In this document: piece after piece, positions 4,674-25,315 of the stretch | How positions within the stretch are numbered: the first letter of the stretch is position 1 | Layout: each line of letters opens with the position of its first letter | DNA from: Minisyncoccota bacterium | GTDB taxonomy: Bacteria; Patescibacteriota; Minisyncoccia; Phycocordibacterales; CSBR16-119 | DNA: 64,000 nucleotides | Direction: 5' to 3' | Assembly: GCA_041389065.1 (NCBI GenBank) | Contig: JAWKSM010000001.1 | Coordinates: 9,461 to 73,460 of the forward strand | Position numbers and translations under genes: made by a program | The notes under the pieces: generated by a model | What the model saw: only the letters and a program-made list of their open reading frames with translations | Databases searched by the model: none | What the model was told of the DNA's origin: nothing

Positions 4674-5435
4674 CTATTTTGTCAACACCTCACAACCATC
4701 CTCAGTCACCAAAATAGTATGTTCAAAATGCGCAGAGATTTTTTCATCGGCAGTTATATAAGTATATTCGTCATCGGTTACAAAAACTTCATCTGTTCCT
4801 AAATTAAGCATTGGTTCAACGGCAATAACCATCCCGGGAACAAGCTCGTCACCTGTTCCAGCCTTTCCGTAATTTGGCACATATGGATCTTCGTGAACAG
4901 AATATCCAACACCATGACCAGAAAGAATTTTTACAATTCCATATCCATAAGGCTCGACAAATTTTTCTATTGCGTTTCCAATATCACCTGTTTTGTTACC
5001 TGGCTTTATTTGTTTTATAGCAACACTCAAAGCCTCTCGTGTTATATTCATGAGCTTTTCTGCTTCTTTTGAAACATTTCCCACCGGAACTGTTATGGCT
5101 GCATCAGTAATCATCCCTTTGTGAACAAGACCCAAATCTAAAGAAACAATATCGCCTTCTTCCAAAACAAAATCAGACGGAATTCCGTGAACAATTTCAT
5201 CATTTACAGAAACACAAAGCGATGCTGGATACGGGTAAGAAACACCTTCTGGGGTGTAGCCAAGAAATGCCGGAGTGTCACCACCTTCGATGATAAGCTG
5301 ATGCGCATATTCGTCGAGCTCTTTTGTTGTCACGCCCGGTGCGACCATGTCAGAAACTTTTTTCAAGATAAAAGCATGGCGTTTTCCGCCCTCTCTAAGT
5401 TTTTCAATATCTTCTTTTGTCTTGATTCTTATCAT
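4674..5435 (-). CDS. map: Methionine aminopeptidase type I
   Basis: 253 aa. Contains conserved metal-ligand blocks (VHGIP, DLGLVHKGMITD, SGHGVGYSVHE, IAVEPM, FEHTILVT). It is in the canonical position after adk. Confidence 0.95.
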   Translation of the reverse strand: MIRIKTKEDIEKLREGGKRHAFILKKVSDMVAPGVTTKELDEYAHQLIIEGGDTPAFLGYTPEGVSYPYPASLCVSVNDEIVHGIPSDFVLEEGDIVSLDLGLVHKGMITDAAITVPVGNVSKEAEKLMNITREALSVAIKQIKPGNKTGDIGNAIEKFVEPYGYGIVKILSGHGVGYSVHEDPYVPNYGKAGTGDELVPGMVIAVEPMLNLGTDEVFVTDDEYTYITADEKISAHFEHTILVTEDGCEVLTK

Positions 5436-5436
5436 T

Positions 5437-6042
5437 TTATTTTGTGCCGAAAATTTTTGAAATTATTTCTTCGTGAACTTTTTCTATTGGTTGCTCACCG
5501 TTTATTTCTATGAAATTAAAATCTCTGCTTTCTCGGAAATAAAACATTGAAGGAATAACGTTCCAGTCGAACCATTCAAGTTTTCTAAGCATATCTTCTT
5601 CTCTGTCGTCGTCTTCTCGTCCTCTTGATTTAAGTCTTTCAAGCGACCACTCTTTTCCTGTTTTTATGTAGATAACATTTGGCTTTTCAAGTCCGTAAAA
5701 CTTTATTGCAGAATCAAGCACAGGTGCTTCGTCTGGTCTTCGGCAAAGTCCATCCAAAATTAAATCTTCTTTTCCAGTGAACCTTTTTTCTAATTCTCCA
5801 GCCCAAAGCCAAATTGGCAAAAAAACCGGCATTAAACCTCCTTCATCCAGAACATTTTTTGTTAGAGAAGATGTGTAGTTATGTTCCCTTCCAATAAAAT
5901 CTCGAAACTTTTGACCAGTTTCGACATACAGAGTTCCGTTGTTTTTATTCTTTTCTAAATATTCTATTAAAAGCTTTGCTTGTGTTCCTTTTCCTGACCC
6001 CGATCTTCCAAAAAATATAAATGTCTGTTGATTGTTTTGCAT
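5437..6042 (-). CDS. adk: Adenylate kinase / nucleoside-monophosphate kinase family
   Basis: 201 aa with P-loop FFGRSGSGKGTQAKLL, in the secY-adk-map position. Confidence 0.8.
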   Translation of the reverse strand: MQNNQQTFIFFGRSGSGKGTQAKLLIEYLEKNKNNGTLYVETGQKFRDFIGREHNYTSSLTKNVLDEGGLMPVFLPIWLWAGELEKRFTGKEDLILDGLCRRPDEAPVLDSAIKFYGLEKPNVIYIKTGKEWSLERLKSRGREDDDREEDMLRKLEWFDWNVIPSMFYFRESRDFNFIEINGEQPIEKVHEEIISKIFGTK

Positions 6043-6098
6043 AATTTAAAATTATTTATAAAGCTAGAATACCAGATTTATAACCTAAAAGCTAACAT

Positions 6099-6126
6099 TT
6101 GACTACTTTGTAAAAATAGATAATAT
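6099..6126 (+). promoter_or_regulatory. Sigma70-like promoter, TTGACT-16-TAATAT
   Basis: TTGACTACTTTGTAAAAATAGATAATAT, 14 nt upstream of the ATG at 6140. Confidence 0.45.
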
Positions 6127-6139
6127 TTAAATAAAAACG

Positions 6140-6598
6140 ATGTTGTACCTACTACCCTTAATCATCCTGTTTTTCCACTACTGGAATTGGATGTGGAAAA
6201 AACTGGAAACCCTTCGTGAAAAAGTAAGGGTGTCCAGGAAAATATATACATACGAACATGAGCGTCAGTTTCTCAGCTTCATCGAGACGGAAAGTGGGTA
6301 CTCAGACACAAGCCTACATTTAGGTTTATACAAAAACCAACCAGAATTCAAAGAGCTGAGTAAAAACAGGTTAAGGTATTTCAAAGCTCTTTACAGATTA
6401 AGAGAAATGCAGAGAGCTATGTTCTTTTTTGAAGATGTCGACATGAACCCAGAAGAAATAGACGATATTGATATTTGGGACATGAAGATGAAATACAAAC
6501 TCGGGATAAATAAGAAAAACTTTTTCTCTTATTACCCCGAGTACATAAGAAGCGTGTTTGGAATCAAAACCACGACCCAAACAAAAAACCCGGCATAG
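6140..6598 (+). CDS. Hypothetical membrane-anchored protein (152 aa), opposite-strand orphan between secY and adk
   Basis: ORF with an N-terminal hydrophobic segment (MLYLLPLIILFFHYWNWMW). It has its own promoter and a bidirectional terminator. Confidence 0.6.
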   Translation: MLYLLPLIILFFHYWNWMWKKLETLREKVRVSRKIYTYEHERQFLSFIETESGYSDTSLHLGLYKNQPEFKELSKNRLRYFKALYRLREMQRAMFFFEDVDMNPEEIDDIDIWDMKMKYKLGINKKNFFSYYPEYIRSVFGIKTTTQTKNPA

Positions 6599-6616
6599 AG
6601 CCGGGAATTTTGTTAT

Positions 6617-6658: not shown

Positions 6659-7924
6659 TTAGTATTGTCTCATTGAGATTTGTCCATCAACTTTCTTCAA
6701 TATATCAAGAATAACAGAAACGACAATCAAAAGTGCTGTACCTCCAATCGCCAATGTCTGAATACCTGAAATTTGTTGCAAGATAAACGGTAGAACAGCA
6801 ACCAATCCAAGGAACAACGCACCCATGAAAGTTACTCTTGTAACAATCTTACTGATATATTCTGTTGTAGATGTTCCTGGTCTAATTCCTGGAATAAATG
6901 CTCCATTTTTTTGAAGATTTGTTGCAACTGATTCTGGTTCGAATGTAATCGCTGTGTAGAAATAAGTGAATCCAAACACAAACACAAAGTAAGCTACAGA
7001 ATACCAAAGTGTTGCTTGAGAGAACCAGATAAACCAATTCCCCACAGTTGAAATAATTCCGATATTTGAACTCGCCATAATACCCGAAAGCATTTGCGGC
7101 AAAGAAAGTATCGATAGAGCAAAGATAATCGGCATAACTCCCGCTTGGTTTATTTTAAGTGGAAGATATGAAGATGATTGACCCAAAGCCCCACCTCGAA
7201 CTTGTCTTGCGTAAGTTATTGGAATCAATCTTTCAGCTTCAGTTACCAGAACAACACCGGCAACAATCAAAACAATCGCAGCAAGCAGTGCCAAATATGT
7301 TGGAATTTGTGCTTGTGTGAAAGTAAAGATTAGTTGATTTATTTGTCCAGGAATTGAAGCAACGATACCAGCGAAAATAAGAATTGAAATTCCATTTCCG
7401 ATACCCTTTTCACTTATAAGTTCACCAAGCCAAACAAGGAACATTGATCCAGCTGTTACAACAATAAGTGCAACCGCTTTATCAAAAGAAGTCATTGCTT
7501 CTAAAATTCCTTGACTGTCTAGCAGTTTCAAAAGTGCAAAACCTTGAATTGCTGCAAGTGGAACTGTAAGTATTCTTGAATATTGAGAGAATTTTGTTCT
7601 TCCCGCTTCACCTTCATCGTGGTAAAGAGATTTCAATCGTGGCGACATCATTGTAAGAAGTTGCATCACAATAGAACCTGTAATATAAGGACCAACTCCG
7701 AGCATTACAATCGAAAGCGCAGAAAGTCCTCCACCAGAAAAGATGTTTAGTATTCCCAAAAATTGGCTACCTTGTAGGAAACCTTGAAGTCTGAAAGTGT
7801 CGACTCCAGGTATTGGGATTGAAGAGAGAAGTCTAAAAATAACCAGAATAAACAATACGAATAAAATTCTTTTTCTTATAGACTTATCTTTAAATGCTAT
7901 TTTTATTTTTCTCCAAAAGCTCAT
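6659..7924 (-). CDS. secY: Preprotein translocase subunit SecY
   Basis: 421-aa polytopic protein with the typical SecY N-terminus (RKRILFVLFILVIFRLLSSIPIPGV) and position after rplO. Confidence 0.95.
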   Translation of the reverse strand: MSFWRKIKIAFKDKSIRKRILFVLFILVIFRLLSSIPIPGVDTFRLQGFLQGSQFLGILNIFSGGGLSALSIVMLGVGPYITGSIVMQLLTMMSPRLKSLYHDEGEAGRTKFSQYSRILTVPLAAIQGFALLKLLDSQGILEAMTSFDKAVALIVVTAGSMFLVWLGELISEKGIGNGISILIFAGIVASIPGQINQLIFTFTQAQIPTYLALLAAIVLIVAGVVLVTEAERLIPITYARQVRGGALGQSSSYLPLKINQAGVMPIIFALSILSLPQMLSGIMASSNIGIISTVGNWFIWFSQATLWYSVAYFVFVFGFTYFYTAITFEPESVATNLQKNGAFIPGIRPGTSTTEYISKIVTRVTFMGALFLGLVAVLPFILQQISGIQTLAIGGTALLIVVSVILDILKKVDGQISMRQY

Positions 7925-7932
7925 AATATTTT

Positions 7933-8388
7933 TTATTTAGATTTGATAGTACCTCCGGCTTTAGTGATTCTGTCTTGTGCAGACTGTGAAGCGAAGCATC
8001 CTACAACATTTAATTTCTTAGAAATTTCTCCTGTTGCAAGAATTTTAACTTCTGGGTTCTTCCCTTTTACCAAAGAAATCACACCTTTTCTAACCAAATT
8101 TTTTGGCGAAACAGTTTCTCCGTTTTCAAAACTTGTATCAAGAGCTGAAAGGCTCACAGAAACAGGTTTTACTACAGAACTGTTAAATGTTTTTCCTCGG
8201 TTTTTTCCGTGACCTCGAAGTTTCGGGAACTTCTTAATAATATCACGCATTTGCGGTCTCATACCATGTGAACCGTGTTGACCTTGTCCTTTGTGACCTC
8301 GGCCTGAAGTTTTTCCTCTTTTACCACCTCGGCCAACATCTTTTTTCTTCGGATTTTTTGTTTTTCTTGTAAGATTATTTAGTTGCAT
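7933..8388 (-). CDS. rplO: 50S ribosomal protein L15 (uL15)
   Basis: 151 aa with a Gly/Arg/Lys-rich N-terminus (GRGGKRGKTSGRGHKGQ); spc operon order. Confidence 0.95.
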   Translation of the reverse strand: MQLNNLTRKTKNPKKKDVGRGGKRGKTSGRGHKGQGQHGSHGMRPQMRDIIKKFPKLRGHGKNRGKTFNSSVVKPVSVSLSALDTSFENGETVSPKNLVRKGVISLVKGKNPEVKILATGEISKKLNVVGCFASQSAQDRITKAGGTIKSK

Positions 8389-8398
8389 AGTAGTGTGA

Positions 8399-8989
8399 TT
8401 ATTTACGTGCTTTTAGTTTACCAAAAGCCTTAATAGCAGCTCTAGCATTGTTTAACTGATTCTTACTTCTTGAAAGAATTTTTCCTGATACGTTTTTCAT
8501 ACCAGCAAGATTCAAGATATCTCGAACAGCTCCTCCGGCCACAAGACCTTTTCCTTTGTTTGGCATTAGAAAGATCTCAGAAGCTTTGTATTTTGCCTTT
8601 ACGTCATGAGAAATTGACATTTCTTTTGTAGTCAAAATCTTAATCATATTTTTTCTTGCGTTCGCAACTGCTTTTGATATTGCAAGAGTTGTGTCGTTTG
8701 ATTTACCAAGGCCAATCCCCACAGAACCTTTTCGGTCACCGATTAGCATTGCTACAGAGAAAGAGAATCTTCGTCCTCCAGCCATAACACGAGTAACTCG
8801 TCTTATACTTAGGATTTTTTGATCAAATTCTGGCTTTGGACGTTCTGCAAATTTTCTATTTGGTTTTCTGTCTCCACCTTGTCCTGACTTTCTGCCAAAA
8901 CTTCGTCCACCTCTAAATGGAGGTTTTGTTGACGAAGTTGGAGCTCCAGCAACACCTTCTGTTTTTGTTTGTTTTGTATCTGTTGTCAT
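8399..8989 (-). CDS. rpsE: 30S ribosomal protein S5 (uS5)
   Basis: 196 aa with an R/G-rich N-terminal extension followed by a conserved S5 core (VTRVMAGGRRFSFSVAMLIGD). It is directly followed by rplO, with no L30 gene between them. Confidence 0.95.
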   Translation of the reverse strand: MTTDTKQTKTEGVAGAPTSSTKPPFRGGRSFGRKSGQGGDRKPNRKFAERPKPEFDQKILSIRRVTRVMAGGRRFSFSVAMLIGDRKGSVGIGLGKSNDTTLAISKAVANARKNMIKILTTKEMSISHDVKAKYKASEIFLMPNKGKGLVAGGAVRDILNLAGMKNVSGKILSRSKNQLNNARAAIKAFGKLKARK

Positions 8990-9007
8990 ATATTTTAAGA
9001 AACAAGA

Positions 9008-9358
9008 TTAGAAGTTTAATCCAGCCTCTCGAGCGCTGTCAGCTAAAAGTTTAATTCGACCTGTATAATTAAAACCATTTCTATCAAAAACGATTTCTTT
9101 TATTTTCATTCCAAGTGCACCTTCTGCGATAATTTTACCAACAGAAGAAGCTCTTTCTTTCTTTGTACCTTTAATACCTTTTACGTCAGACGCAGAAATT
9201 AAAGTCTTTCCAGAGTTGTCATCGATAAGCTGAGCGTAAATGTTTTTGTTTGATTTATAAACAGAAAGTCTAGGTCTAGAAGATGTACCAGATACTTTTG
9301 ATCGTATCTTTCTTTTTATTCTAGCTCTTTTTTCTGTTTTAGGATTTTTTGATTTCAT
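9008..9358 (-). CDS. rplR: 50S ribosomal protein L18 (uL18)
   Basis: 116 aa; PRLSVYKSNKNIYAQLIDD and FDRNGFNYTGRIKLLADSAREAGL motifs. Confidence 0.95.
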   Translation of the reverse strand: MKSKNPKTEKRARIKRKIRSKVSGTSSRPRLSVYKSNKNIYAQLIDDNSGKTLISASDVKGIKGTKKERASSVGKIIAEGALGMKIKEIVFDRNGFNYTGRIKLLADSAREAGLNF

Positions 9359-9375
9359 AATACTAAAATAAAATA

Positions 9376-9912
9376 TTAAGCAGACTTCTTACCTTGCTTT
9401 CTTCTAATAAATTCACCGTCATATCTAATACCCTTTCCTTTGTAAGGTTCAGGTTTTTTGTAATCTCTAATTTTCGCAGAGAAAAGACCAACAAGCTCTT
9501 TGTCGATACCAGAAATTGTCATTGTACTTTTTTCTGTTGTAACAGTTAGTCCTTCTGGGATTGGCACCAAAACTTCGTGAGAAAATCCAAGTGACATTTT
9601 TACATTCTTTCCAGAAACTTCCCATTTATAACCAACTCCTTCCACAAGCAATTTCTTTTCAAATCCTTCGTTAACTCCCTTTATCATGTTTTTAACATGA
9701 GAAGCATAAGTTCCCCAAAGTGCTTTCGCAAAATTTGAATCTTTTTGTGGAGCAAATGTTATTTCGCTGCCGTTAATATTAACCACAACAACATCTGTCT
9801 TTAAATCTTTTTTAAGTTCTCCCTTTTTTCCTTTTACAGTAATTACACCACCAGCAAGATTAACATCTGTGCCATTTGGTATTTCTACTATTTGTTTTCC
9901 TACTCTAGACAT
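9376..9912 (-). CDS. rplF: 50S ribosomal protein L6 (uL6)
   Basis: 178 aa; MSRVGKQIVEIP... and YKGKGIRY motifs; operon order. Confidence 0.95.
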   Translation of the reverse strand: MSRVGKQIVEIPNGTDVNLAGGVITVKGKKGELKKDLKTDVVVVNINGSEITFAPQKDSNFAKALWGTYASHVKNMIKGVNEGFEKKLLVEGVGYKWEVSGKNVKMSLGFSHEVLVPIPEGLTVTTEKSTMTISGIDKELVGLFSAKIRDYKKPEPYKGKGIRYDGEFIRRKQGKKSA

Positions 9913-9921
9913 AAAATATAA

Positions 9922-10311
9922 TTACCAAATTTTAAATAATGCTTCTCCGCCGACCAACTCTTTTCGAGCTTCATCACCTGTTAGAACACCTTTTGGTGTT
10001 GAAACAACAAGCAAACCAGCGCCGTTTTTAACAGGTCTGATTTCTTTTGCTTTTATATAAATTCTTCTTGAAGGTTTTGAGATTCTTTCCACGTTTGTAA
10101 CTTTTGGAAGTCTTCCTTCATAAGAAATAGATATTTCAAGAACAGGTTTGTTTTTCTTGTCTGTCTTCTTTGCAATAGTGCCTACGTAATTTTGTTTAGA
10201 AAGACATTCTGCAACTGCATGTCGCAAGTTTGAATAAGGAAGTACAACACTCGCTTTTGATGCTCGTCCTGCATTCTTTATTGTTATTAACATTTCTCCG
10301 ATTTTATCCAT
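9922..10311 (-). CDS. rpsH: 30S ribosomal protein S8 (uS8)
   Basis: 129 aa; DKIGEMLITIKNA and GGEALFKIW termini typical of S8. Confidence 0.95.
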   Translation of the reverse strand: MDKIGEMLITIKNAGRASKASVVLPYSNLRHAVAECLSKQNYVGTIAKKTDKKNKPVLEISISYEGRLPKVTNVERISKPSRRIYIKAKEIRPVKNGAGLLVVSTPKGVLTGDEARKELVGGEALFKIW

Positions 10312-10323
10312 AAAATTTGTAGA

Positions 10324-10593
10324 TTACCAAGAAGATTTTCTAATACCTGGAATTTCTCCTTCATTTGCCAATTCTCGAAACTTGATTCGAGAAAGACCAA
10401 AATCACGAAGAAAACCTTTTCCTCGACCTGTTGCCACGCATCTATTTTTTAGTCTCGATGATGAAGAATTCTTTGGAAGTTTTTGCAAAGCTTCAAAATC
10501 ACCAGAGGCTTTTAGTTCTGCTCGTTTTTTAGCAAATTTTGCGTGAAGTTTTACGCGTTTTGCTTGTCGAGCCAAGACTGATCTTTTTGCCAT
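10324..10593 (-). CDS. rpsN: 30S ribosomal protein S14 (uS14), long form
   Basis: Start re-assigned to the internal ATG at 10593 ([20 protein letters not shown]...GIRKSSW, 89 aa). The 39-codon upstream extension in the track has no S14 similarity. Confidence 0.9.
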
Positions 10594-10925: not shown

Positions 10926-11831
10926 GGTGGTTTCAATAGAGACCGGGTCAGAGTCTCTGGATCTTCTCGAAGGGGTGGGCTTACAACCGTTGGAGAACTC
11001 TTGAGCGAACCCCCAAACTTTATTTTGTCTGCCCTACCAGCCAAAGCTGCAAAGGAGATACTTCCTGAGTTTTCTGCAAGAGGCTCAATCGTTATCGATA
11101 AATCCGATGCATTCAGAATGCAGGAAGAGCCGGCTATTAAGTTGATCGTGCCTGAAGTAAATGGGCATTTACTGATAGGAGATGAAAGGATCGTTGCAAG
11201 TCCAAACTGCACAACCACACAACTTGTTGTTGCAATTAATCCCCTTCACAAGGAACTTAGGTTGTCCTCGCTTCACGTTACAACCTTTCAATCTGCAAGC
11301 GGGGCTGGGAAAGAAGGGTCTGAACAACTGCGCAAAGAGTCTCTGCGAATACCCGTTCCGAAAACTGAAATGGTTTTTCGACCACAGCTTTTCAGGAACG
11401 TGGTTCCAGTTTGCGGAAGTATCACAGGAAGCGGTGAAAGTACCGAGGAGCTAAAGATCAAAATGGAAACCAGAAAGATCATGGAGCTCCCCGACCTTCC
11501 GGTCTATGCAACATCGACAAGGGTTGCTGTTGAAAGATCGCACTCAATGTCTGTAGTTGCGAGATTTGAAAAGCCAACAACAGCAGCTTCTGTGATGGAA
11601 ATACTATCTCGAGAAGGTACTGGGGTTGAAATACCCTGTGACAACAGTGAGTATTTCACCGCCTTAGAAGCCTCTGGAGAAAACCTGGTCTATGTTAGCA
11701 GAATTCGCGTAGACAAAGATGATCCAAGAATTGTGAGCCTTTGGGTTGTTGCCGACAACCTAAGAAAAGGTGCGGCACTCAACGCTTGGCAAATAATGAA
11801 AATAATAATGAATCGCAAAGGGTGGTCCTAA
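10926..11831 (+). pseudogene. asd: Aspartate-semialdehyde dehydrogenase, 5'-truncated (no Rossmann GxxGxxG segment, no start codon)
   Basis: Translation shows Asd blocks: VSGSSRRGG, VIDKSDAFRM, LIVPEVN, active-site SPNCTTT, QSASGAG, VERSHS, ADNLRKGAALNA. Similarity continues upstream of the track's TTG start (11001) to about 10926 without any start codon. About 30 N-terminal residues are absent. GC is clearly higher than the host's. Confidence 0.8.
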
Positions 11832-11841
11832 CAGGACCACC
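11821..11841 (+). terminator. Hairpin spanning the asd stop codon
   Basis: GGTGGTCC-taaca-GGACCACC followed by CAATTTTATT. It probably travelled with the asd fragment. Confidence 0.4.
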
Positions 11842-11857
11842 CAATTTTATTAAAAAC

Positions 11858-11890: not shown

Positions 11891-12457
11891 TTATTTCTTC
11901 TTTTTCTTTGGTTCTGAGACTTTTTTAAATGGCATTCCGATGTGATCAAACAAAGCTTTTGCTTCTGCTTTTGTTTTTGCTGTAGTTGCAATAGTTACCG
12001 CCATTCCGAAAACATCTTTCAATTCTTCATCACCTGTTTCTGGGAAAATAGTGTGTTCGCGAACTCCAAGAGTTAGGTTTCCAATATTGTCGATAATTTT
12101 TGAATCAACTCCTCGGAAGTCTTTTGTTCGTGGAAGAGCAATGTTTATCAGCTTATCAATAAAAGAATACATTTTTTCTCCTCGAAGCGTTACCATCATA
12201 CCGATTGGCTCACCTTGTCTAACTTTGAATTGAGCGATAGATTTCTTTGCTTGTCGCATTGCTGGTTTTTGACCAGTGATTTTTGCAATTCTGTCTGCGA
12301 TAAAAGTGTTTTTGTTTTTATCGTTTCGCATTTTTGAACCAGTTCCCACAGAAATAACCACCTTTGTGATTTTTGGAGCGGCCATAGAATTTTTATAGCC
12401 AAACTCTCCTTTCAAGGCGTTATACGAATCTTTAATTTTTTCTTTTACTGTTTTCAT
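11891..12457 (-). CDS. rplE: 50S ribosomal protein L5 (uL5)
   Basis: 188 aa; conserved L5 blocks (PKITKVVISVGTG, MVTLRGEKMYSFIDKLI). Confidence 0.95.
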   Translation of the reverse strand: MKTVKEKIKDSYNALKGEFGYKNSMAAPKITKVVISVGTGSKMRNDKNKNTFIADRIAKITGQKPAMRQAKKSIAQFKVRQGEPIGMMVTLRGEKMYSFIDKLINIALPRTKDFRGVDSKIIDNIGNLTLGVREHTIFPETGDEELKDVFGMAVTIATTAKTKAEAKALFDHIGMPFKKVSEPKKKKK

Positions 12458-12484
12458 AATATTTATGTGGGTTATATAACAAAA

Positions 12485-12730
12485 CTATTTCTTTGATTTT
12501 GCTGTCTTTTTTGGTGCGTCAGCAAGTTTTACGTTTGAAATATGGATAGCAGCAGGAATTTCGATAATTTGTCCTGGTTGCTTTGTTCCTTTTGCTTTAG
12601 TGTGTCGCTTTTTTATTGCAATACCTTCTACAATAACTTTTGACTCAGCACTTAAAACGCGAAGAACTTTTCCCTTCTTACCTTTATCACTTCCTGTGAT
12701 AACTATTACGTTGTCGTTTTTCTTAATCAT
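12485..12730 (-). CDS. rplX: 50S ribosomal protein L24 (uL24)
   Basis: 81 aa; KKNDNVIVITGSDKGKKGKVLRV KOW motif. Confidence 0.95.
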   Translation of the reverse strand: MIKKNDNVIVITGSDKGKKGKVLRVLSAESKVIVEGIAIKKRHTKAKGTKQPGQIIEIPAAIHISNVKLADAPKKTAKSKK

Positions 12731-12734
12731 AAAA

Positions 12735-13106: not shown

Positions 13107-13116
13107 AAAATTATTG

Positions 13117-13368: not shown

Positions 13369-13375
13369 ATTTAAA

Positions 13376-13567: not shown

Positions 13568-13568
13568 A

Positions 13569-16403: not shown

Positions 16404-16423
16404 GAGGTGTGGTAGAAAGTTCA

Positions 16424-16867: not shown

Positions 16868-16916
16868 CTTAGTAAGGTTCTAGTGGTTTTAAATCAATCC
16901 TACAACATAAAAATAC

Positions 16917-16985: not shown

Positions 16986-17840
16986 TTATTTTGATCTTTG
17001 TTGATTTCTTTTTGTTTTTCTTCGAGTAACAATAAACTTATCAGAGTATTTCTTCGATCGTCGTGTTTTAACTCCGTAAGCAAGCTTACCGTGTCGTGTC
17101 TTTGGACCTCTTCGAAGACCGATTCCTTGTCGACCTTCACCTCCTCCGTGTGGGTGGTCTACTGGGTTCATGGCCGTACCACGAACTGTAGGTCTGATTC
17201 CAAGCCATCTGTTTCTTCCGGCTTTTCCTCTTTTAACAAGTTTAAATTCAGCGTTTGAAACTTCTCCAACTGTTGCAAAACATGTTGAAGGAACTTTTCT
17301 AATTTCACCTGATGGCATTTTTAGAGAAGTTTTTCCTTCATCGTGAGCAACAACTTGAACGAAAGATCCTGCACCTCTTGCGATTTTTGCACCTCCTTTG
17401 AACTTCAATTCAACGTTGTGAACAAAGTTACCTACAGGAATGTTTACAAGAGCCATTCTGTTTCCAGCTTTTACTTCTGCTTCTTGTGAGACAACAAAAG
17501 TATCGCCAACATTCAACCCTTTTACCGCAAGAACGTATCTCTTTTCTCCATCTTTGTATGAAACAAGAGAGATGAAAGAGTTTCTGTTTGGATCGTATTC
17601 AACAGACTTTACTGTCGCTGGGATATCAAATTTATTATAAGTAAAATCGATATCTCGATATCGTCTCTTGTGTCCACCACCTTGGTGGGGAACAGTTACA
17701 ATACCTCTGTTGTTTCGTCCGCCTTTTTTCTTAAGACCTCGTAGAAGTTTTTTTGTTGGACGTGTGCCCGACAAAGCTTTTCTATAATTTGTTGTCACCA
17801 GGTTTCTTTTACCTGCTGACGTTGGTTTATGTATTTTCAT
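16986..17840 (-). CDS. rplB: 50S ribosomal protein L2 (uL2)
   Basis: 284 aa; GRNNRGIVTVPHQGGGHKRRYR, MNPVDHPHGGGEGR. Confidence 0.97.
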   Translation of the reverse strand: MKIHKPTSAGKRNLVTTNYRKALSGTRPTKKLLRGLKKKGGRNNRGIVTVPHQGGGHKRRYRDIDFTYNKFDIPATVKSVEYDPNRNSFISLVSYKDGEKRYVLAVKGLNVGDTFVVSQEAEVKAGNRMALVNIPVGNFVHNVELKFKGGAKIARGAGSFVQVVAHDEGKTSLKMPSGEIRKVPSTCFATVGEVSNAEFKLVKRGKAGRNRWLGIRPTVRGTAMNPVDHPHGGGEGRQGIGLRRGPKTRHGKLAYGVKTRRSKKYSDKFIVTRRKTKRNQQRSK

Positions 17841-17898
17841 GTTGATTTACAATCTATAATGAATTATCTTTTCTTATTCTCAGATTGTTATATTAATT

Positions 17899-18291
17899 TT
17901 AAACAAACTCTATTTTGTCTCCCTTTTTAAGAAACACATAGGCTTTTTTACCGCCACCTTTTTGTCCAAGAATATTTCTTCGAACAACTCTTTTTGTAGG
18001 AATAGCAGTAATGTTTACTTTTACTGGAGTTACGTTGTACAAAGCTTTTACAGCTTTCATAACTTCAACTTTTGAAGCTCTCGAAGAGATATCAAAAGTG
18101 TAAACATTTTTATCTGATGCATACGCAGCTTTTTCTGTAATTCTTGGATTTGCGATCACAGAACCAGAATCAAAGTTTGATACATTTTCACTCTTAGAAA
18201 TTTTCGCTTTTACTTTTTTGGTTTCTTTAACGACAACTTCTTTTGTTTCTTCTGACTTTTTGTCAGAGTCTTTTTTGTTAAATAATCCCAT
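17899..18291 (-). CDS. rplW: 50S ribosomal protein L23 (uL23) with Lys/Glu-rich N-terminal extension
   Basis: 130 aa; the C-terminal 85 aa form the L23 core (NPRITEKAAY...YTFDIS...KKAYVFLKKGDKIEF). Confidence 0.9.
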   Translation of the reverse strand: MGLFNKKDSDKKSEETKEVVVKETKKVKAKISKSENVSNFDSGSVIANPRITEKAAYASDKNVYTFDISSRASKVEVMKAVKALYNVTPVKVNITAIPTKRVVRRNILGQKGGGKKAYVFLKKGDKIEFV

Positions 18292-18292
18292 A

Positions 18293-18955
18293 TTACTTTA
18301 GCTTAGCTTCTAATGTTTTAATACTTTCTGTCGGGTTAACAATAACCAAGTATCGGTGATTTAGAACATCCAAGATATTTAGATTTCTAATTTCGTTCAC
18401 TTCTACGTGAGGAATATTGTTGAAACTTTTTATTACAGTGTCATCTTTTGAGTCAGTCGCAAAATGAGCAACAACCTTTTTTGAACCCAAAAGTCTTTCA
18501 AATCCTTCGATTTTTCCAAGAGACGTAACTGTGTTGAAAGCTTCTTTTGTCTTAATTTCTGAAGGTGTAATACTGTCCACAAAAAGAATTCTTCCAGCTT
18601 TGAACTTTTCAGACAAAGCAGTGAAAAGGGCTTTCGCATTCATTTTCTTGTTGATCTTCTTTTTGTAGTTTCGAGTATTCTTTGGACCGTGAGCAACTCC
18701 TCCACCAACCCAAATTGGTGATTTTCTGTCTCCGTGTCGTGCTCGTCCTGTTCCTTTTTGTTTCCAAGGTTTCTTACCTGTTCCAGATACTTCTCCTCTA
18801 TCTTTTGTGTGAGCAGTATTTGTTCTTTGGTTAGACATTGTACTTACCACTACTTGGTGAACCAAGTCTGCATTTTTTGGAAGTCCGAAAATAGTTTCTG
18901 GCAGAGAAATATTTCCTGCAACCTCCCCTTTTTTGTTATATATTTTTGCTTCCAT
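18293..18955 (-). CDS. rplD: 50S ribosomal protein L4 (uL4)
   Basis: 220 aa; KPWKQKGTGRARHGDRKSPIWVGGGVAHGPK. Confidence 0.95.
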   Translation of the reverse strand: MEAKIYNKKGEVAGNISLPETIFGLPKNADLVHQVVVSTMSNQRTNTAHTKDRGEVSGTGKKPWKQKGTGRARHGDRKSPIWVGGGVAHGPKNTRNYKKKINKKMNAKALFTALSEKFKAGRILFVDSITPSEIKTKEAFNTVTSLGKIEGFERLLGSKKVVAHFATDSKDDTVIKSFNNIPHVEVNEIRNLNILDVLNHRYLVIVNPTESIKTLEAKLK

Positions 18956-18958
18956 ATA

Positions 18959-19573
18959 TTATCCTTTAATAGTGATAACTGTCCCTCGTCGACCAGGCAA
19001 GGCACCTTTTATAAGTAACTGATTATTTTCAGCATCAACAGCAAGAACTTTTAGGTTTTTTACAGTAACCAAATCAGATCCCATTCTTCCTGCCATTCGA
19101 ATTCCTTTTGCAACACGTCCTCCAGCTCGTCCACCTGATCCACCGATAGAACCAGCTTCTCTTTCAGAGTGCTTTTGTCCGTGTGAGCGTCGTCCTCCAT
19201 GGAAACCATGTCTTTTAACAACACCTTGGAATCCTTTACCTTTAGAAATTCCTGATACAGAAACAGTGTCGCCTGTAGCAAACACAGAAGCGTCAATCTT
19301 GTCGCCAGTATTAAGATTAAGACCTTCCAATCTAAACTCTTTTAGAAGTTTAAAATTTCCAAGATCTTTTACGTGACCTTTTACAGGTTTTGAGATTCTT
19401 GATTCTTTTTGTTCACCAAAACCAAGCTGTACTGCTTCGTATCCATCTTTTTCTTTTGTTTTTTTGTATACCACAGTAACAGGACCAGCGTTCACGATTG
19501 TTGCTGGAAAAACTTGTCCAGCTTCATCGAAGAACTGTGTCATGTTCTGTTTAGTTCCGATTATAAATTTCAT
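18959..19573 (-). CDS. rplC: 50S ribosomal protein L3 (uL3)
   Basis: 204 aa; GKGFQGVVKRHGFHGG motif. Confidence 0.95.
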   Translation of the reverse strand: MKFIIGTKQNMTQFFDEAGQVFPATIVNAGPVTVVYKKTKEKDGYEAVQLGFGEQKESRISKPVKGHVKDLGNFKLLKEFRLEGLNLNTGDKIDASVFATGDTVSVSGISKGKGFQGVVKRHGFHGGRRSHGQKHSEREAGSIGGSGGRAGGRVAKGIRMAGRMGSDLVTVKNLKVLAVDAENNQLLIKGALPGRRGTVITIKG

Positions 19574-19654
19574 AGAAATAGTTAAGTTATCACGACGCCC
19601 CGCTCCTTTTAAGGAATCGGGGTCGTGACATTGTACCTATATTAACTTTGTAAA

Positions 19655-20005
19655 TTACTTCATTGTTACATCAACCTCCACACCTGATGGAAGATTGAGG
19701 TTTGTAAGAGCTTCGATAGTCTTTGCGTTTGGATTCAATATATCGATAAGTCTCTTGTGAGTTCGCATTTCGAATTGTTCTCGTGCGTCTTTGTATACGA
19801 ACGGAGATCTGTTTACTGTGTACTTTTTTATATCAGTAGGCAGTGGAACAGGACCCAAGATTTTTGCGTCATAGCGAAGTGCTGTGTCGATAATTTGTTT
19901 TACCGAATTATCTAAAATCTTGTTTTCGTACGCTCTAACTCGAATGCGAAGCTTTACTTCACCTTCTTTATTTGCGGTTTTTGATTGTGCTTTTTTAGCT
20001 ACCAT
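19655..20005 (-). CDS. rpsJ: 30S ribosomal protein S10 (uS10)
   Basis: 116 aa; [14 protein letters not shown]...GPVPLPT...[24 protein letters not shown]. Confidence 0.95.
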
Positions 20006-20029
20006 ATTAATGAACTGTATTAGTTGGAA

Positions 20030-21226
20030 TTATTTGATGATTTTAACTACAACTCCGGCACCAACTGTTCTTCCTCCTTCTCGCACCGCAAATCTTTGTT
20101 GTTCTTCAAGGGCGATAGGTGCAACCAAGTTTACTTTGATATTTACAGTATCTCCTGGCATAACCATTTCTGTTCCTTCTGGAAGTGTTACTTCACCTGT
20201 TACGTCTGTTGTTCGAAGATAGAATTGTGGTTTGTAACCTTTGAAGAATGGAGTGTGTCGTCCACCTTCTTCTTTCTTTAGAACGTAGATTTCAGCTTCA
20301 AATTCTGTGTGAGGTTTTACTGAACCAACAGCAGCAAGAACTTGTCCTCGGTGAATATCTTCTTTCTTAGTACCTCGTAGTAGAAGTCCAGCGTTGTCTC
20401 CAGCCATACCTTCAGAAAGTTGTTTGTTGAACATTTCAACTCCTGTGATAGTTGTTTTTGTTGTTTCGTGTAGACCAACAATTTCAACTTCTTGACCAAC
20501 TTTGATAACACCTCTTTCAATTTTACCTGTAGCAACAGTTCCTCTTCCTTCGATAGAGAAAATGTCTTCAACTGGCATAAGGAAAGGTTTGTCTAGATCT
20601 CGAACTGGTTCTGGGATGTATGTATCAAGAGCATCCATAAGTTCCATAATCTTTCCAACCCAAGGATCGTTAGGATCTGTAGCTTCAGTAGCTTTTAGAC
20701 CTGATCCCTTAATAACTGGAGTGTTAGCTCCATCGAATCCGTTCTTTGTAAGAAGTTCTCGAATTTCTTCTTCAACAAGCATTACCATTTCTTCGTCTTC
20801 AACCATGTCTACTTTGTTTAGGAAAACAACGAATCTTGGCACACCTACTTGTTTTGCAAGAAGTACGTGTTCACGAGTTTGTGGCATCACACCATCTGTA
20901 GCTGCAACCACTAGGATTGCACCGTCCATTTGTGCGGCACCTGTAATCATGTTTTTGATGTAGTCAGCGTGACCTGGCGCGTCGATGTGCGCGTAGTGTC
21001 GCTTTTCTGTTTCATACTCTTGGTGAGAAAGAGAGATAGTAATACCTCTTTCTTTTTCTTCAGGAGCATTATCGATATCTGCTACTGACTTCATTGAAGC
21101 CATAAACCCCTTAAGCTTTAGAGCGTTAAGGATACCTGCAGTAAGAGTTGTCTTACCGTGGTCAACGTGTCCAATTGTACCCACGTTTACGTGAGGCTTT
21201 GAACGATCAAACATTTCTGCTGCCAT
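20030..21226 (-). CDS. tuf: Elongation factor Tu
   Basis: 398 aa; [22 protein letters not shown]-motifs. Confidence 0.98.
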
Positions 21227-21339: not shown

Positions 21340-21507
21340 CCTAAAATCGGTTTTTAGGAAACAAAAAGACGCGTAAGTGCGCTGTGGAGTATTGTATATG
21401 AAAAGAGTTGAGGCGTCAAGGAGTTTTTTTCTTTTATTAAATGAAAGGATTTAATTTAAAAAGAAAGCCCCGCAGTCCTTCCGGACTGCGGGGTTTACTC
21501 AAACAAG
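21340..21507 (+). repeat. TCAAACAG-loop structured element, copy 5 (degenerate)
   Basis: CCTAAAA..TTTTAGG hairpin, AAACAAAAAGACGCG, then the tail GAGGCGTCAAGG ... GGATTTAATTTAAAAAGAAA. A GCCCCGCAGTCC-ttcc-GGACTGCGGGG hairpin follows (same GCCCCGCA/TGCGGGG ends as the copy 2 inner stem), followed by TTTA-CTCAAACA-AGG. The long outer hairpin is missing. Confidence 0.5.
21391..21419 (-). promoter_or_regulatory. Sigma70-like promoter, TTGACG-17-TACAAT, reading toward tuf
   Basis: Minus strand reads TTGACGCCTCAACTCTTTTCATATACAAT. The -35 box is the reverse complement of the conserved GCGTCAAGG tail motif of the element. Confidence 0.4.
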
Positions 21508-21517
21508 GAACAGATCA

Positions 21518-21787
21518 CTATGTCAGCATCTGCATCTGGTAGTTGGGTCGGACAACCGTTCCATTGTCGAGAAGAGGTTTCAGGTCAAGCCAGACCAGCT
21601 CATGCAAACGAGGCAACGGGAATTTTGGCTGAGGTAACATCTCAACATCAAGCTTCTCTAGTAGAGCTTTGGCGAGATACTCATTAAGCTCTGACTCATT
21701 TGCGATAGTGTCTCCCTCTAGCCAATCCCGGAAGCGAAAGAGGGATTCCATGAACCCAAGCTTCGATTTCCGAATTGCGCTCATCAT
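21518..21787 (-). CDS. Hypothetical protein (89 aa), orphan between fusA and tuf
   Basis: ORF in a GC-richer segment, downstream of the 62-aa ORF on the same strand in a different frame. Confidence 0.5.
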   Translation of the reverse strand: MMSAIRKSKLGFMESLFRFRDWLEGDTIANESELNEYLAKALLEKLDVEMLPQPKFPLPRLHELVWLDLKPLLDNGTVVRPNYQMQMLT

Positions 21788-21840
21788 GTCACCGTGACAT
21801 AGATGACGGCAACACTCCTGTGGAAGCTGGTTTGACAGAT

Positions 21841-22029
21841 TTAGTATGAAGATGACAGATCTATTACCAGCCTTATCAATAATGCGAGCTTCCCGGACCA
21901 GTAACTCGGAAGTGAGTGGCGCACCTTATGTCCCCAATCATCCTCATATTGAGGTCCAGCGTTTTCGGAATTATCCTGAAAACCCACACGAAATTCGATA
22001 TTCATGGTTACTCCTTCGAGAGTTTTCAT
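21841..22029 (-). CDS. Hypothetical protein (62 aa), orphan between fusA and tuf
   Basis: ORF preceded by the promoter at 22072-22100. It could be a separate small gene or the 5' part of a frameshifted gene continuing in 21518..21787. Confidence 0.4.
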   Translation of the reverse strand: MKTLEGVTMNIEFRVGFQDNSENAGPQYEDDWGHKVRHSLPSYWSGKLALLIRLVIDLSSSY

Positions 22030-22071
22030 GGTGTTTCGTTCTAGTTAGAAGTGCTTTCTTCTTCAAAATTA

Positions 22072-22100
22072 ATATTACTCTTACTAAAAAACTTTTGCAA
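22072..22100 (-). promoter_or_regulatory. Sigma70-like promoter, TTGCAA-17-TAATAT
   Basis: Minus strand reads TTGCAAAAGTTTTTTAGTAAGAGTAATAT, about 40 nt upstream of the ATG at 22029. Confidence 0.45.
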
Positions 22101-22108
22101 GCCAAAAC

Positions 22109-22134: not shown

Positions 22135-22155
22135 GCTTTTGCTTATTTAAATTAT

Positions 22156-24309
22156 TTAAGCTGTTTGTCTTTTTTTGATTATTTCTTCTGAAACGTTCTT
22201 TGGAACAACATCGTATCGTAGGAATTCCATTGTGAAGTTTCCTCGTCCTGCAGTCATTGATCGAAGATTGTTGATATATCCGAACATTGATGAAAGTGGA
22301 ACAACTGCTTTAATAGCTTGAACCATTCCTCTGTCTTCTGTTCCTTCGATAAGCCCTCTCTTTGATGCAATATCTCCAGTAATGTCTCCCATATATGAGT
22401 GAGGGGCAACAACTTCAACTTTCATCATCGGTTCAAGAATAACAGGACTTGCTTTCTTTGCAGCATCTTGGAAAGCCATTGATGAAGCAATTTTGAACGC
22501 AATTTCAGAAGAGTCCACGTCGTGATACGATCCATCGTATAGATCAACTCGAATATCAGTCATTGGGTATCCAGCAAGAACACCTCTTGCCATTGATTCT
22601 CTAAATCCTTTTTCACAAGCTGGAATATATTCTTGAGGAATAACACCACCTTTGATTGAGTTTACAAATTCCAAACCATCTTCTCTTGAAACGTTCTTTG
22701 GCAAATCTTCTTCAGCCACAGAATAATCAAGTGGAGAAACTCTGATCTTAACGTGACCGTATTGTCCGCGACCTCCTGATTGTTTGATGTATTTATTTTC
22801 AACGTCAGCAGTTCCAGAAATAGTTTCTCGGAAAGCAACTTGTGGAGCACTTGTATTTGCTTCAACAGAAAACTCTCTTTTCATTCTGTCTACGATAATA
22901 TCAAGGTGAAGTTCTCCCATACCAGCGATGATTGTTTCGCCTGTTTCAGGATCTGAAGAAACTCGGAAAGTTGGATCTTCTGCTTGAAGTCTGTTTAGAG
23001 CAAGACCCATTTTTTCTTGGTCTGCTTTTGTCTTTGGTTCAATTCTCATTGAGATAACCGGTTCTGGCGCAACAATCTTTTCAAGCATTATTGGATGATC
23101 TTCATTACAAAGAGTGTCTGATGTTGTTGTATCTTTAAGACCAACAGCAGCAGCGATTTCTCCAGCGTAAACAACCTTCACTTCTTCTCTGTCGTTTGAG
23201 TGCATTCGAAGAATTCTACCGACTCGCTCTTTTATACCTTTTGTAGCGTTGTAAACATAAGAACCTGATTCTAGTTTTCCAGAATATACTCGGATGAAAG
23301 TTAGCTGACCAACGTATGGATCTGATTGAAGCTTGAAAGCCAGTGCAGCAAGCGGGGCTTCGTCAGAAACTTCTCTTTCAACTGTTTCGTTTGTTTCTGG
23401 ATCAATACCTTTTGGTTTTGGAATATCAAGTGGACTTGGAAGATAATCAACAACACCATCCAAAACCAATTGCACTCCTTTGTTCTTTAGAGCTGATCCA
23501 CAAAATACTGGGAAAATTTCATTTTTGATAACAGCAGATCGAAGAGCTTTTTTCAAATCTTCAACAGAAAAATCTGTCTTTCCTTCAAGATATTCTGACA
23601 TCATCGCTTCGTCAGTTTCTACAATTTTTTCTACAAGCTCCATTCGAAGTTTTTCAGCCTCATCTTTGTATTCAGCTGGAATTTCCATTTCTACAATGTC
23701 TTTTCCTTTATCTCCTTCGAACTTATAAGCTTTCATTTTTATAAGATCAATAACAGCTTCGAACTTGTCTTCAAGTCCAATAGGAATTTGAATTCTGACA
23801 GCCTTTTTTGTAAGACGCGCCAAAATACTTTCGAAAGATCTTTCAAAAGAAGCACCTGTTCTGTCTAGTTTGTTAATAAAACAAAGTCGTGGCACGTTTC
23901 CATCATCAGCATATCTCCAGTTTGTTTCTGATTGCGGCTCTACCCCAGCCACTCCATCGAAAACAACAACAGCACCGTCCAAAACTCGAAGAGATCTTTT
24001 CACTTCAATAGTGAAGTCGATGTGACCCGGTGTGTCGATTAGGTTAAACTGACACTTTTTTGAAGTATCTGTTGCAGGCATATATGAAGGGCTCCAAAAT
24101 GCTGTTGTCGCAGCAGAGGCGATAGTGATTCCTCGCTCTCTTTCTTGTTCCATCCAGTCCATCACTGTTTCTCCGTCGTGAACTTCGCCTATTTTGTGAC
24201 TTTCACCAGTATAAAAAAGCACACGTTCTGATGTTGTTGTTTTACCAGCATCGATGTGAGCAATGATTCCAAAATTTCTAACTTTAGCGAGTGGGTAGTC
24301 TCTGTTCAT
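22156..24309 (-). CDS. fusA: Elongation factor G
   Basis: 717 aa; [21 protein letters not shown] motifs and full domain complement. Confidence 0.98.
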
Positions 24310-24419
24310 ATATAAAATTCTTCAATATTTATAAAATAATAATACCTGTTATCACAAGATATAATACATCATAATTATTTAAATATCATTATTAGGAGAT
24401 ATTTATTTTGTATGACGAA

Positions 24420-24890
24420 TTACCAAGCAAAGTGAGCGAAAGCTTTGTTTGCTTCAGCCATTTTGTGGGTATCATCTCGTTTTTTGATAGCAGCACCTTC
24501 GTTGTTGAAAGCTGAGATAATTTCTTCTGTAAGAGCCGTATCCATAGTTACGCCTTTTCTTCCTCGAGCAGCTTCAATAATCCATCGCATTGCAAGTTGT
24601 AGTCTTCTTTCAGCTCTAACTTCTCGTGGAACTTGATAGTTTGCACCACCAACTCTTCGAGATCTTACTTCCATAACTGGAGAAGCATTTTTAAGAGCAC
24701 CATCAAAAACCTCTAAAGGATTTGGGTTTTGTGTTTTTTCAGCAACTTTTTTAAGAGTTTTATAAACAACAGTTTCTGCTGTTGTTCTTTTCCCATCCAA
24801 CATAACATAGTTAATAAACTTAGAGAGTTTCTCTGAGTTATACATTCTGTCAGCTTCTGTTATATTTTTCTTTTTAATTGGTCTTCGCAT
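24420..24890 (-). CDS. rpsG: 30S ribosomal protein S7 (uS7)
   Basis: 156 aa; MRRPIKKKNI...VRSRRVGGANYQVP...AFAHFAW. Confidence 0.95.
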   Translation of the reverse strand: MRRPIKKKNITEADRMYNSEKLSKFINYVMLDGKRTTAETVVYKTLKKVAEKTQNPNPLEVFDGALKNASPVMEVRSRRVGGANYQVPREVRAERRLQLAMRWIIEAARGRKGVTMDTALTEEIISAFNNEGAAIKKRDDTHKMAEANKAFAHFAW

Positions 24891-24895
24891 ATTTT

Positions 24896-25315
24896 TTATT
24901 TAGCAGCTTTTGGTTTTTTAGCACCATATTTACTTCTAGCATTTCTTCTCTTTTCTACTCCACCAGCATCGAGAACTCCTCGAACAACTGTATATCGCAC
25001 ACCAATAAGGTCTTTCACTCTACCTGATCTAAGCATTACCACAGAGTGTTCTTGAATATTGTGTCCTTCTCCTGGAATATATGCTGTTACTTCGTAGTGA
25101 TTAGTCAAACGAACTCTGGCAATTTTTCGAAGCGCTGAGTTTGGCTTCTTTGGAGTTGTTGTTGTAACTTTTGTACAAACACCTCTTTTAAAAGGAGAAG
25201 CGTATGATGTTGGTCTATTTGTAATAGAATTAAAACCACGTCGAAGAGCAAGAGTTTTTACAACTCTTTCTGACTTCTTTCTTCCCTTTTTAACTAATTG
25301 ACTTATTGTTGCCAT
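24896..25315 (-). CDS. rpsL: 30S ribosomal protein S12 (uS12)
   Basis: Start re-assigned to the ATG at 25315 ([14 protein letters not shown]...). Conserved [22 protein letters not shown]. The 22-codon extension in the track is not S12-like. Confidence 0.95.

Follow-up and report, generated by a model that had tools for sequence, protein, structure and literature searches.

Sequence signals point to an ancestral, invaded chain of five ribosomal-protein operons in a Patescibacteria genome

INTRODUCTION

Few features of bacterial genomes are as conserved as the gene order of the ribosomal-protein (r-protein) supercluster, and the cluster's cuts into operons and their regulation are known for only a few model phyla. 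In the window analyzed here (that is, the whole 64-kb stretch of DNA), the cluster occupies the minus strand between rpsL (25315) and map (4674), at a GC content of ~36%, and its otherwise tight order is broken by four gaps: fusA|tuf (929 nt), rplB|rpsS (1488 nt), rplE|rpsN (~1300 nt), and secY|adk (616 nt). These gaps hold small genes, referred to below as cargo, and copies of a structured repeat, referred to as the element. The locus therefore raises the question of whether a single operon was cut by recent insertions, as a preliminary description of this DNA proposed, or whether a series of operons has been invaded at its junctions.

Our analysis favors the second answer. The str-S10-spc supercluster is probably a chain of five collinear operons, with an ancestral partition, invaded gaps, and operon promoters that did not come from the cargo. 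In the mechanism that we propose, each operon would end at an intrinsic terminator, and the next would restart at a σ70-type promoter followed by a conserved structured leader (120-165 nt). In the simplest form, the terminator would abut the next promoter (“operon concatenation”). The gaps between terminator and promoter would tolerate extra DNA, and fast-evolving orphan open reading frames (ORFans), a decaying fragment of the aspartate-semialdehyde dehydrogenase gene (asd), and element copies would fill them (“invasion”), with cargo and element supplying none of the operon promoters. The mechanism supposes that a substantial share of transcripts in vivo ends at these terminators and begins at these promoters.

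RESULTS

Five probable units and the terminators and predicted promoters between them

The closest GTDB species representatives are metagenome-assembled genomes of Paceibacteria/Parcubacteria. Since their RpsC identity is only 52-68%, the window appears to derive from a Patescibacteria (candidate phyla radiation [CPR]) genome without a close reference. Its r-protein genes, located by open reading frames (ORFs) and homology searches, fall into the following units:

22156..25315, minus strand: unit 1, rpsL, rpsG, fusA (ORFs and tblastn map)
16986..21226, minus strand: unit 2, tuf, rpsJ, rplC, rplD, rplW, rplB (ORFs and tblastn map)
11891..15497, minus strand: unit 3, rpsS, rplV, rpsC, rplP, rpmC, rpsQ, rplN, rplX, rplE (ORFs and tblastn map)
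6659..10593, minus strand: unit 4, rpsN, rpsH, rplF, rplR, rpsE, rplO, secY (ORFs, Pfam/NCBIfam, and tblastn map)
4674..6095, minus strand: unit 5, extended −10 promoter, adk, map (promoter sequence kept in the window and in the relatives L203 and L209)

The gene for ribosomal protein L30 is absent, so that S5 is directly followed by L15. A hairpin with a T-run follows fusA (stop at 22156), rplB (16986), rplE (11891), and secY (6659). The preliminary description had placed terminators at these positions, and an independent scan of the coding (minus) strand recovered all four, with folding energies (dG) of −17 to −26 kcal/mol and T-runs:

22108-22135, minus strand (bidirectional): terminator after fusA, dG −19.0 kcal/mol; orthologous hairpin in L203, L205, and L207
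16915-16948, minus strand (bidirectional): terminator after rplB, 15 pairs, 8 of them GC, dG −26.2 kcal/mol
11850-11889, minus strand (bidirectional): terminator after rplE, dG −17.2 kcal/mol; orthologous in L203, L205, L207, and L209
6616-6650, minus strand (bidirectional): terminator after secY, 16 pairs, 9 of them GC, dG −21.1 kcal/mol

The stems comprise 12-18 pairs and lie 8-37 nt past the stop codon, and a T-run follows each of them. Because all four hairpins have an A-tract on the 5′ side and a T-tract on the 3′ side, we read them as bidirectional; the rplE terminator also faces the convergent asd fragment. The rplB terminator is orthologous, with compensatory changes, in L203, L205, L207, and L209, and secY is followed by a terminator in L203, L205, and L209 as well. 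Over the 19.9 kb scanned, terminator-like sites are enriched (35 vs 15.4 ± 4.0 in shuffles), and the 11 strongest are all inside the four gaps, which account for ~4.2 kb. In an Rfam E-value scan of 4.5-25.5 kb, the hairpins gave sub-threshold matches, all to terminator-containing families. By sequence criteria, the four hairpins thus qualify as canonical intrinsic terminators.

Predicted promoters precede tuf, rpsS, and rpsN, at exactly the coordinates given by the preliminary description, and a further one precedes adk:

21419-21391, minus strand: tuf promoter, TTGACG-17-TACAAT, 10/12 consensus matches
15681-15653, minus strand: rpsS promoter, TTGACA-17-TAGTAT, 10/12, TG-extended
10777-10750, minus strand: rpsN promoter, TTGACT-16-TAATAT, 9/12, TG-extended
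6066-6095, minus strand: adk extended −10 promoter, TTAGCT-18-TGgTATTCT, kept in the window, L203, and L209

The tuf, rpsS, and rpsN promoters are among the best-scoring promoter-like sites of the scan. At 6066-6126, the adk promoter (minus strand) and the promoter of a 152-aa ORF (plus strand) stand back-to-back and divergent within ~60 nt.

Breaks, terminators, and promoters are shared across the family

We compared the window with a genus-level set (L203, L205, L207/L208, and L209; RplB 86-93% identical), a family-level set of 17 GTDB relatives (RpsC 52-68% identical), and 11 more distant Patescibacteria. In the family-level set, terminators follow rplB in 12/14, rplE in 14/17, rpsJ in 9/9, secY in 10/13, and fusA in 4/9 cases, and nearly none follow other genes, whereas at most 1/10 of the distant Patescibacteria has a terminator after rplB or rplE. 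The promoter motif TTGACN-N16-18-TAnn[AT]T has a sense-strand background of 0.043 per 250 nt. Within the 250 nt that precede the gene, it occurs in 17/17 family-level relatives for rpsS and in 15/16 for rpsN, and most of these relatives also have it upstream of tuf; before rpsS or rpsN, it is found in 0/10 distant Patescibacteria. Even in L006, where the rplB|rpsS gap is just 59 nt, the rpsS promoter is still present.

The same junctions have expanded repeatedly in family-level relatives, with rplB|rpsS spanning 193-2738 nt and rplE|rpsN reaching up to 5461 nt, and in some of these genomes the upstream flank of rpsS has no rplB at all. Expansion also affects fusA|tuf, secY|adk, and adk|map, as well as rpsJ|rplC, though the last is not expanded in the window. 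In the distant Patescibacteria, the junctions are tight.

Within the genus, all relatives share the window's promoters and long leaders, and their terminators after fusA, rplB, and rplE are orthologous to those of the window, with compensatory changes in the stems. In L209, 8 nt and no cargo lie between the rplE terminator and the rpsN promoter, and in L203 only 17 nt separate the cargo from the rpsS promoter. Such abutment of a terminator, or of cargo, on the next promoter is not seen in the window, where the gaps measure 616-1488 nt and are filled with cargo. Since it occurs only in the relatives, the window would represent a derived, invaded state of terminator-promoter concatenation. The partition itself appears to be ancestral to a whole Paceibacteria clade and not a recent event in this genome.

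Altogether, the subdivision rpsL-fusA | tuf-rplB | rpsS-rplE | rpsN-secY | adk-map is a reasonable one in light of the comparative evidence.

Gaps turn over their cargo

The four gaps contain the following islands:

21468..22107, minus strand: island 1, two ORFans (62 aa, 21841-22029; 89 aa, 21518-21787) and a terminator of their own (21468-21493)
15890..16914, minus strand: island 2, ORFs o147 (16424-16867) and o120 (15961-16323), with terminators at 16379-16403, 15926-15953, and 15890-15907 and an o120 promoter at 16343-16371
11001..11842, plus strand: island 3, 5′-truncated asd fragment, with a terminator at 11820-11842
6099..6605, plus strand: island 4, ORFan of 152 aa (6140-6598), with a promoter at 6099-6126 and a terminator at 6589-6605

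Every cargo gene has its own signals, and a count of at least five units, plus separate small units for the cargo ORFs, is a reasonable reading of the locus. Pfam and NCBIfam searches of the cargo ORFs gave no match except for the asd fragment (PF02774 at 4.5e-34; PF01118 over its last third only). The open frame of this fragment (10899-11842, plus strand) runs into an element copy that is itself truncated at its 5′ end, and the N-terminal Rossmann part is gone, which suggests that one deletion removed both the asd 5′ end and the 5′ arm of the element.

Cargo differs between genomes whose RplB sequences are 86-93% identical, and tblastn and blastp comparisons of the window's cargo with the junctions of relatives met mostly unrelated sequences. 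At fusA|tuf, the 62- and 89-aa ORFans of the window stand against 310 + 205 aa, 224 aa, or 145 aa + HIT + 155 aa in relatives. At rplE|rpsN, the asd fragment stands against 216 aa, 182 aa, 386 aa + tRNA-Ile, or nothing. The island 4 ORFan is absent from L203 and L209. Past the rplB terminator, the first ORF comes from either of two fast-evolving families, the first comprising o147 and its orthologues of 149 aa in L001, 142 aa in L209, and 83 aa in L205, and the second comprising ORFs of 171 aa in L203 and 153 aa in L207. Because a conserved short upstream region precedes this ORF, it appears to be an old, fast-evolving resident and not a fresh insertion.

Several observations on the junctions stand apart from this argument. 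Between the window and L001, the segment 16658-16945 (within o147) is hypervariable, with 72-93% nucleotide identity and indels between flanks of 97-100%; RplB and o120 are 100% identical as proteins. The tRNA-Ile(UAU) gene mentioned above (L207:16664-16737) lies within the rplE|rpsN gap; after it, and just before the rpsN promoter, comes what is left of the element's 3′ hairpin. A VirD4/TraG-like coupling protein (Pfam PF12696; 1016-3748, minus strand) adjoins element copy 1 (listed below), outside the cluster. Since a 46%-identical homologue of this protein is found between fusA and tuf in L006 (L006:2245-4920), conjugation-type genes also land in these junctions.

Element copies adjoin, but do not account for, the operon promoters

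Element copies were located as follows:

808-985, plus strand: copy 1, then a terminator, no promoter
10786-10925, minus strand: copy 2, without the 5′ arm, 9 nt before the rpsN −35 box
15696-15861, minus strand: copy 3, 58.6 bits, E 1.3e-12, 14 nt before the rpsS −35 box
43704-43900, minus strand: copy 4, then a terminator, no promoter
Elsewhere: L205:6172-6346, L205:11386-11563, L207:6226-6388, L207:11479-11646, L209:161-372, L113:5561-5788, and L210-L213

In the genus, copies are found directly 5′ of the promoter of tuf, rpsS, or rpsN and are always co-oriented, and their presence varies from genome to genome. At the tuf site, the element is present in L205, L207, and L209 and absent in the window and L203; at the rpsS site, the window, L205, and L207 have it, and L203 and L209 lack it. 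Copies from the same genome resemble each other more closely than do those at orthologous sites.

This arrangement was the basis for the explanation in the preliminary description, that recent insertions of mobile modules cut a single operon and that the element brought, or forced the recruitment of, the promoters of rpsS and rpsN. The adjacency on which it drew is borne out, since the −35 boxes of rpsN and rpsS begin 9 and 14 nt past the terminal hairpin of a copy. Copies also lie just upstream of the tuf and rpsS promoters in L205, L207, and L209, and the A-rich arm of the element's last hairpin would sit where an UP element would. However, the same promoters and leaders are found in L203, which has no element copy, and in all family-level relatives, whose loci have none either; a covariance model detected no copy in 27 other r-protein loci; the rpsN promoter of L209 stands there without cargo; and copies 1 and 4 of the window are followed by terminators and not by promoters. 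Therefore, the modules did not bring the promoters; they lie in gaps that a terminator and a promoter already delimited. The break points are, moreover, clade-wide, which leaves an origin of the units by recent insertion very improbable.

Comparison with related genomes supports at least five units, and the breaks and promoters shared by family-level relatives argue for an inherited layout as the cause, in place of insertion. Nor would “systematic re-wiring” of a strictly co-expressed operon describe the locus, either as a recent event, given break points that appear ancestral to the whole Paceibacteria clade, or as a departure from one operon, given that model bacteria have str, S10, and spc as distinct operons in concatenation (PMC6735719).

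The element has an invariant internal loop within a long stem

The core of the element is a long stem enclosing an invariant asymmetric internal loop (UGCUGUUUGAGC...GCGAGUUCA). Written as RNA, it reads 5′-UG CUGUUUGA GC, a variable apical hairpin, and GC GAGUU CA-3′. The core is followed on its 3′ side by UUUAG, GCCUUGAAyUUUUUG, and a conserved hairpin with a U-rich and an A-rich arm (GUUCUUUUG...CAAAAGAAC).

An exact-pattern scan of metagenome contigs gave at least 124 matches. Among the matches listed, the flanks are at least 8/9 complementary in 41/124 and, with the TG prefix, at least 7/9 complementary in 75/91, against a chance expectation of at most ~2%. The stems reach further out, with a duplex energy of −25.5 vs −12.9 kcal/mol for shuffled flanks in 37/41 copies, again among the matches listed. 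This fraction of raw pattern matches with complementary flanks is the independent test of the stem, since the structure was specified by hand on short-loop copies chosen for their paired flanks, which makes a covariation count circular for those pairs. RNAalifold on a MAFFT alignment of full-length copies did not recover the long stem, the arms being misaligned. Carriers include AT-rich CPR contigs, GC-rich contigs, human-gut contigs, and four IMG/VR viral contigs, in which the element is intergenic.

Rfam 15 gave zero matches at the gathering threshold in the 64-kb window, and none overlapping the motif in 18 other motif-bearing loci. The proteins neighboring the element form no conserved family, and BLAST against annotated phages found no match, while among plasmids BLAST matched the 3′ module alone, in two unannotated plasmids of Persicobacter. 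A literature search with the motif sequence returned primer matches only. Bulk catalogues of candidate RNAs exist (PMC8040213, PMC10690425), and the element may be listed there, unnamed. By inspection, we rejected a k-turn (the C-stem is unpaired), an integron attC site (R boxes are absent and the conservation lies at the wrong end), and group II intron domain V, signal recognition particle RNA, 6S RNA, and the tRNA T-arm. The palindrome of the element is internal and structured and not a simple pair of terminal inverted repeats, and no target-site duplication was seen by inspection of filled vs empty sites. If the element acts at all, it might offer a UP-like or protein-binding platform, or might give an RNA that continues into the mini-terminators of the leaders.

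Long structured leaders follow the promoters

Three conserved leaders separate the promoters from tuf, rpsS, and rpsN:

21227-21390, minus strand: tuf leader, 164 nt, conserved, starting with a hairpin and T-run (hairpin within 21360-21385)
15498-15652, minus strand: rpsS leader, 155 nt, structured, hairpin and U7 at 15630-15645
10594-10749, minus strand: rpsN leader, 156 nt, structured, starting with a hairpin with no U-run after it

Across the genus, leader lengths are ~165 nt for tuf, ~120 nt for rpsS, and ~155 nt for rpsN; the rpsS leader reaches 155 nt in the window owing to a 29-nt GC-rich mini-insert at 15520-15548. This insert is a nested GC-rich hairpin of ~30 nt (CCCGCCCG...) that is absent from four relatives, and a similar GC-rich insert is present inside the element copies of L113 (~5700-5735) and L209 (~290-325). 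The ~30-nt hairpin may be a second, miniature mobile palindrome. A tRNA scan of the whole 64-kb window found zero tRNA genes, and the resemblance of GGTTCGATTC in the rpsS leader to a tRNA was set aside.

Upstream of rpsS, rpsN, and tuf across all relatives, a short GC hairpin with a T-run lies at most 55 nt from the −10 box in 37/50 promoters, compared with 27/264 random windows, which suggests attenuation or a 5′ stabilizing stem. The hairpin starts only a few nt past the predicted transcription start. No Rfam 15 family matches the leaders at the gathering threshold in the scan of the window. Since the leaders are conserved, carry promoter-proximal hairpins, and resemble those of known r-protein operons, we infer by analogy that they may give operon-specific feedback, through attenuation or translational autoregulation by the encoded r-protein. 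By their sequence, the three leaders are candidate new r-protein regulatory RNAs of Patescibacteria.

Leaders and element can be combined in a single reading, in which the element would be an uncharacterized cross-phylum structured RNA or folded single-stranded DNA, and not a local miniature inverted-repeat transposable element (MITE), that has repeatedly settled 5′ of the tuf, rpsS, and rpsN promoters and might affect expression there, and in which the three leaders would be new r-protein regulatory RNAs. We offer this combination tentatively and regard it as possible but, on balance, doubtful.

Co-transcription and artefact as alternatives

Could the locus instead give one or two long transcripts, with hairpins that serve as partial attenuators or as RNA-stability or processing elements and internal promoters that only top up the downstream genes? 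The junction terminators of Salmonella are leaky and regulatory (PMC6735719), and the units of the window may likewise be partly co-transcribed. Collinearity has been strictly kept despite invasion, which suggests selection for linkage, and most cargo ORFs in the relatives are co-directional with the operons. The terminators of the window, however, are very strong (dG −17 to −26 kcal/mol, long U-runs), a conserved promoter and leader of its own precede each unit, and two of the junctions hold genes on the opposite strand, so that read-through would yield antisense RNA. We therefore consider long transcripts unlikely, although considerably more plausible than the insertion model.

Besides the leakiness just mentioned, several points weigh against a chain of five operons. 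Promoter-like sites are not enriched as a class (45 vs 42.3 ± 7.2), so that the three promoters, taken within the window alone, would not stand out from chance, and their weight would come from position and conservation. The adk promoter is weak, with hexamer matches of 3/6 and 4/6 plus TGn. Compensatory changes in the predicted leader structures (at 4 pairs in rpsS and 6 pairs in rpsN) come from just five closely related sequences, and the gene boundaries of the relatives, obtained by tblastn, are approximate. The promoter-proximal hairpins and U-runs could end many transcripts, which makes the output uncertain. More generally, the support lies in the sequence: in which signals are present and where, in how strong and how conserved they are, and in how the cargo changes between genomes.

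The chance-level count of promoter-like sites, together with a GC-rich segment at 26-30 kb, could also be taken to indicate an artefact, with the contig being chimeric or mis-assembled or the motifs matching by chance. Conservation of the signals is far above background, however. An independent assembly, L001, reproduces the rplB gap and its island at 95% nucleotide identity, and four related contigs have the same architecture, including the gene upstream of rpsL; therefore, the layout is not an assembly artefact, and we give this explanation almost no credence. A chain of five invaded operons remains the reading that we prefer.

Features upstream of rpsL and elsewhere in the window

The region upstream of the cluster contains signals that are kept in the window, L203, L205, and L207:

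25335-25347, minus strand: rpsL leader hairpin with T-run
25351-25382, minus strand: conserved promoter-like region of rpsL
25409-25432, minus strand: terminator of the upstream gene, which encodes a 624-aa protein

This protein (25452-27326, minus strand) has a C-terminal sorting domain of the type IX secretion system (T9SS; Por), and its gene lies within a GC-rich stretch at 26000-30000 (48-49% GC vs 36% for the genome). The gene may be an old transfer from Bacteroidota. A protein of ~600 aa is encoded upstream of rpsL in L203, L205, and L207 too; therefore, the GC-rich segment is not a chimera. A repeat that probably belongs to a coding region occupies 39094-39259, where three 69-nt units (78-86% identity) stand in direct tandem.

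DISCUSSION

Our results suggest that a different partition of the supercluster, with breaks at rplB|rpsS and rplE|rpsN, has been stable across a Patescibacteria clade, with lineage-specific promoters and leaders, and that the inter-operon gaps act as small hot spots of ORFan turnover. The locus offers concrete targets for the study of gene regulation in uncultured small-genome bacteria, namely, three leaders, five promoters, and four terminators, and would extend the model of operon concatenation and invasion beyond Proteobacteria and Firmicutes. If it is undescribed, the element could outweigh the original finding, given its wide distribution, its invariant loop, and the lack of an Rfam match.

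ERIC, REP/BIME, Correia, and RUP are intergenic palindromic repeats or MITE-like elements. Like them, the element is an imperfect long palindrome in terminator-promoter gaps, with variable presence and variable internal insertions. Unlike them, it has an invariant, asymmetric loop that is common to several phyla and to viral contigs, and its stems covary; unlike MITE-like elements, it shows neither a partner transposase nor a target-site duplication. Judged by these sequence features, a conserved structured RNA seems a better description of the element than a decaying MITE.

R-protein leader RNAs are lineage-specific (Fu et al. 2013, PMC3616713), examples being the S10 leader with L4 attenuation and the spc mRNA with S8. 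The leaders described here resemble such autoregulatory leaders in being long, conserved, and, by prediction, structured, with a terminator-like hairpin near the 5′ end. They differ in that they match no Rfam leader and in that rpsS, rpsN, and tuf are not leader-controlled first genes in Escherichia coli.

For the operons themselves, the closest parallel is the concatenation of the str, S10, spc, and alpha operons of Gammaproteobacteria via terminator-promoter overlap (Brandis, Cao & Hughes 2019, PMC6735719). Invasion-separation, in which a small number of genes enter the space between two operons joined in this way, provides the second (Brandis 2021, PMC8046335), and both processes, concatenation and inter-operon invasion, have been described for Gammaproteobacteria and Bacilli (PMC6735719, PMC8046335). 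As in Gammaproteobacteria, collinear operons of the translation apparatus are joined here, and the terminator or the cargo can run directly into the next promoter (8 nt at rplE|rpsN in L209 and 17 nt between cargo and rpsS promoter in L203), whereas in the window 0.6-1.5 kb of cargo separate the two signals. In contrast to E. coli, the breaks lie inside the S10 and spc operons (rplB|rpsS and rplE|rpsN) and at fusA|tuf, and both tuf|rpsJ and rpsQ|rplN are unbroken. In contrast to invasion-separation, three to four junctions have been invaded in one genus with the operons still collinear, and the invaders are fast-turnover ORFans, a pseudogene fragment, and a structured repeat. What is new here is where the breaks fall, within the S10 and spc operons as E. 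coli has them, together with repeated invasion that has left collinearity intact.

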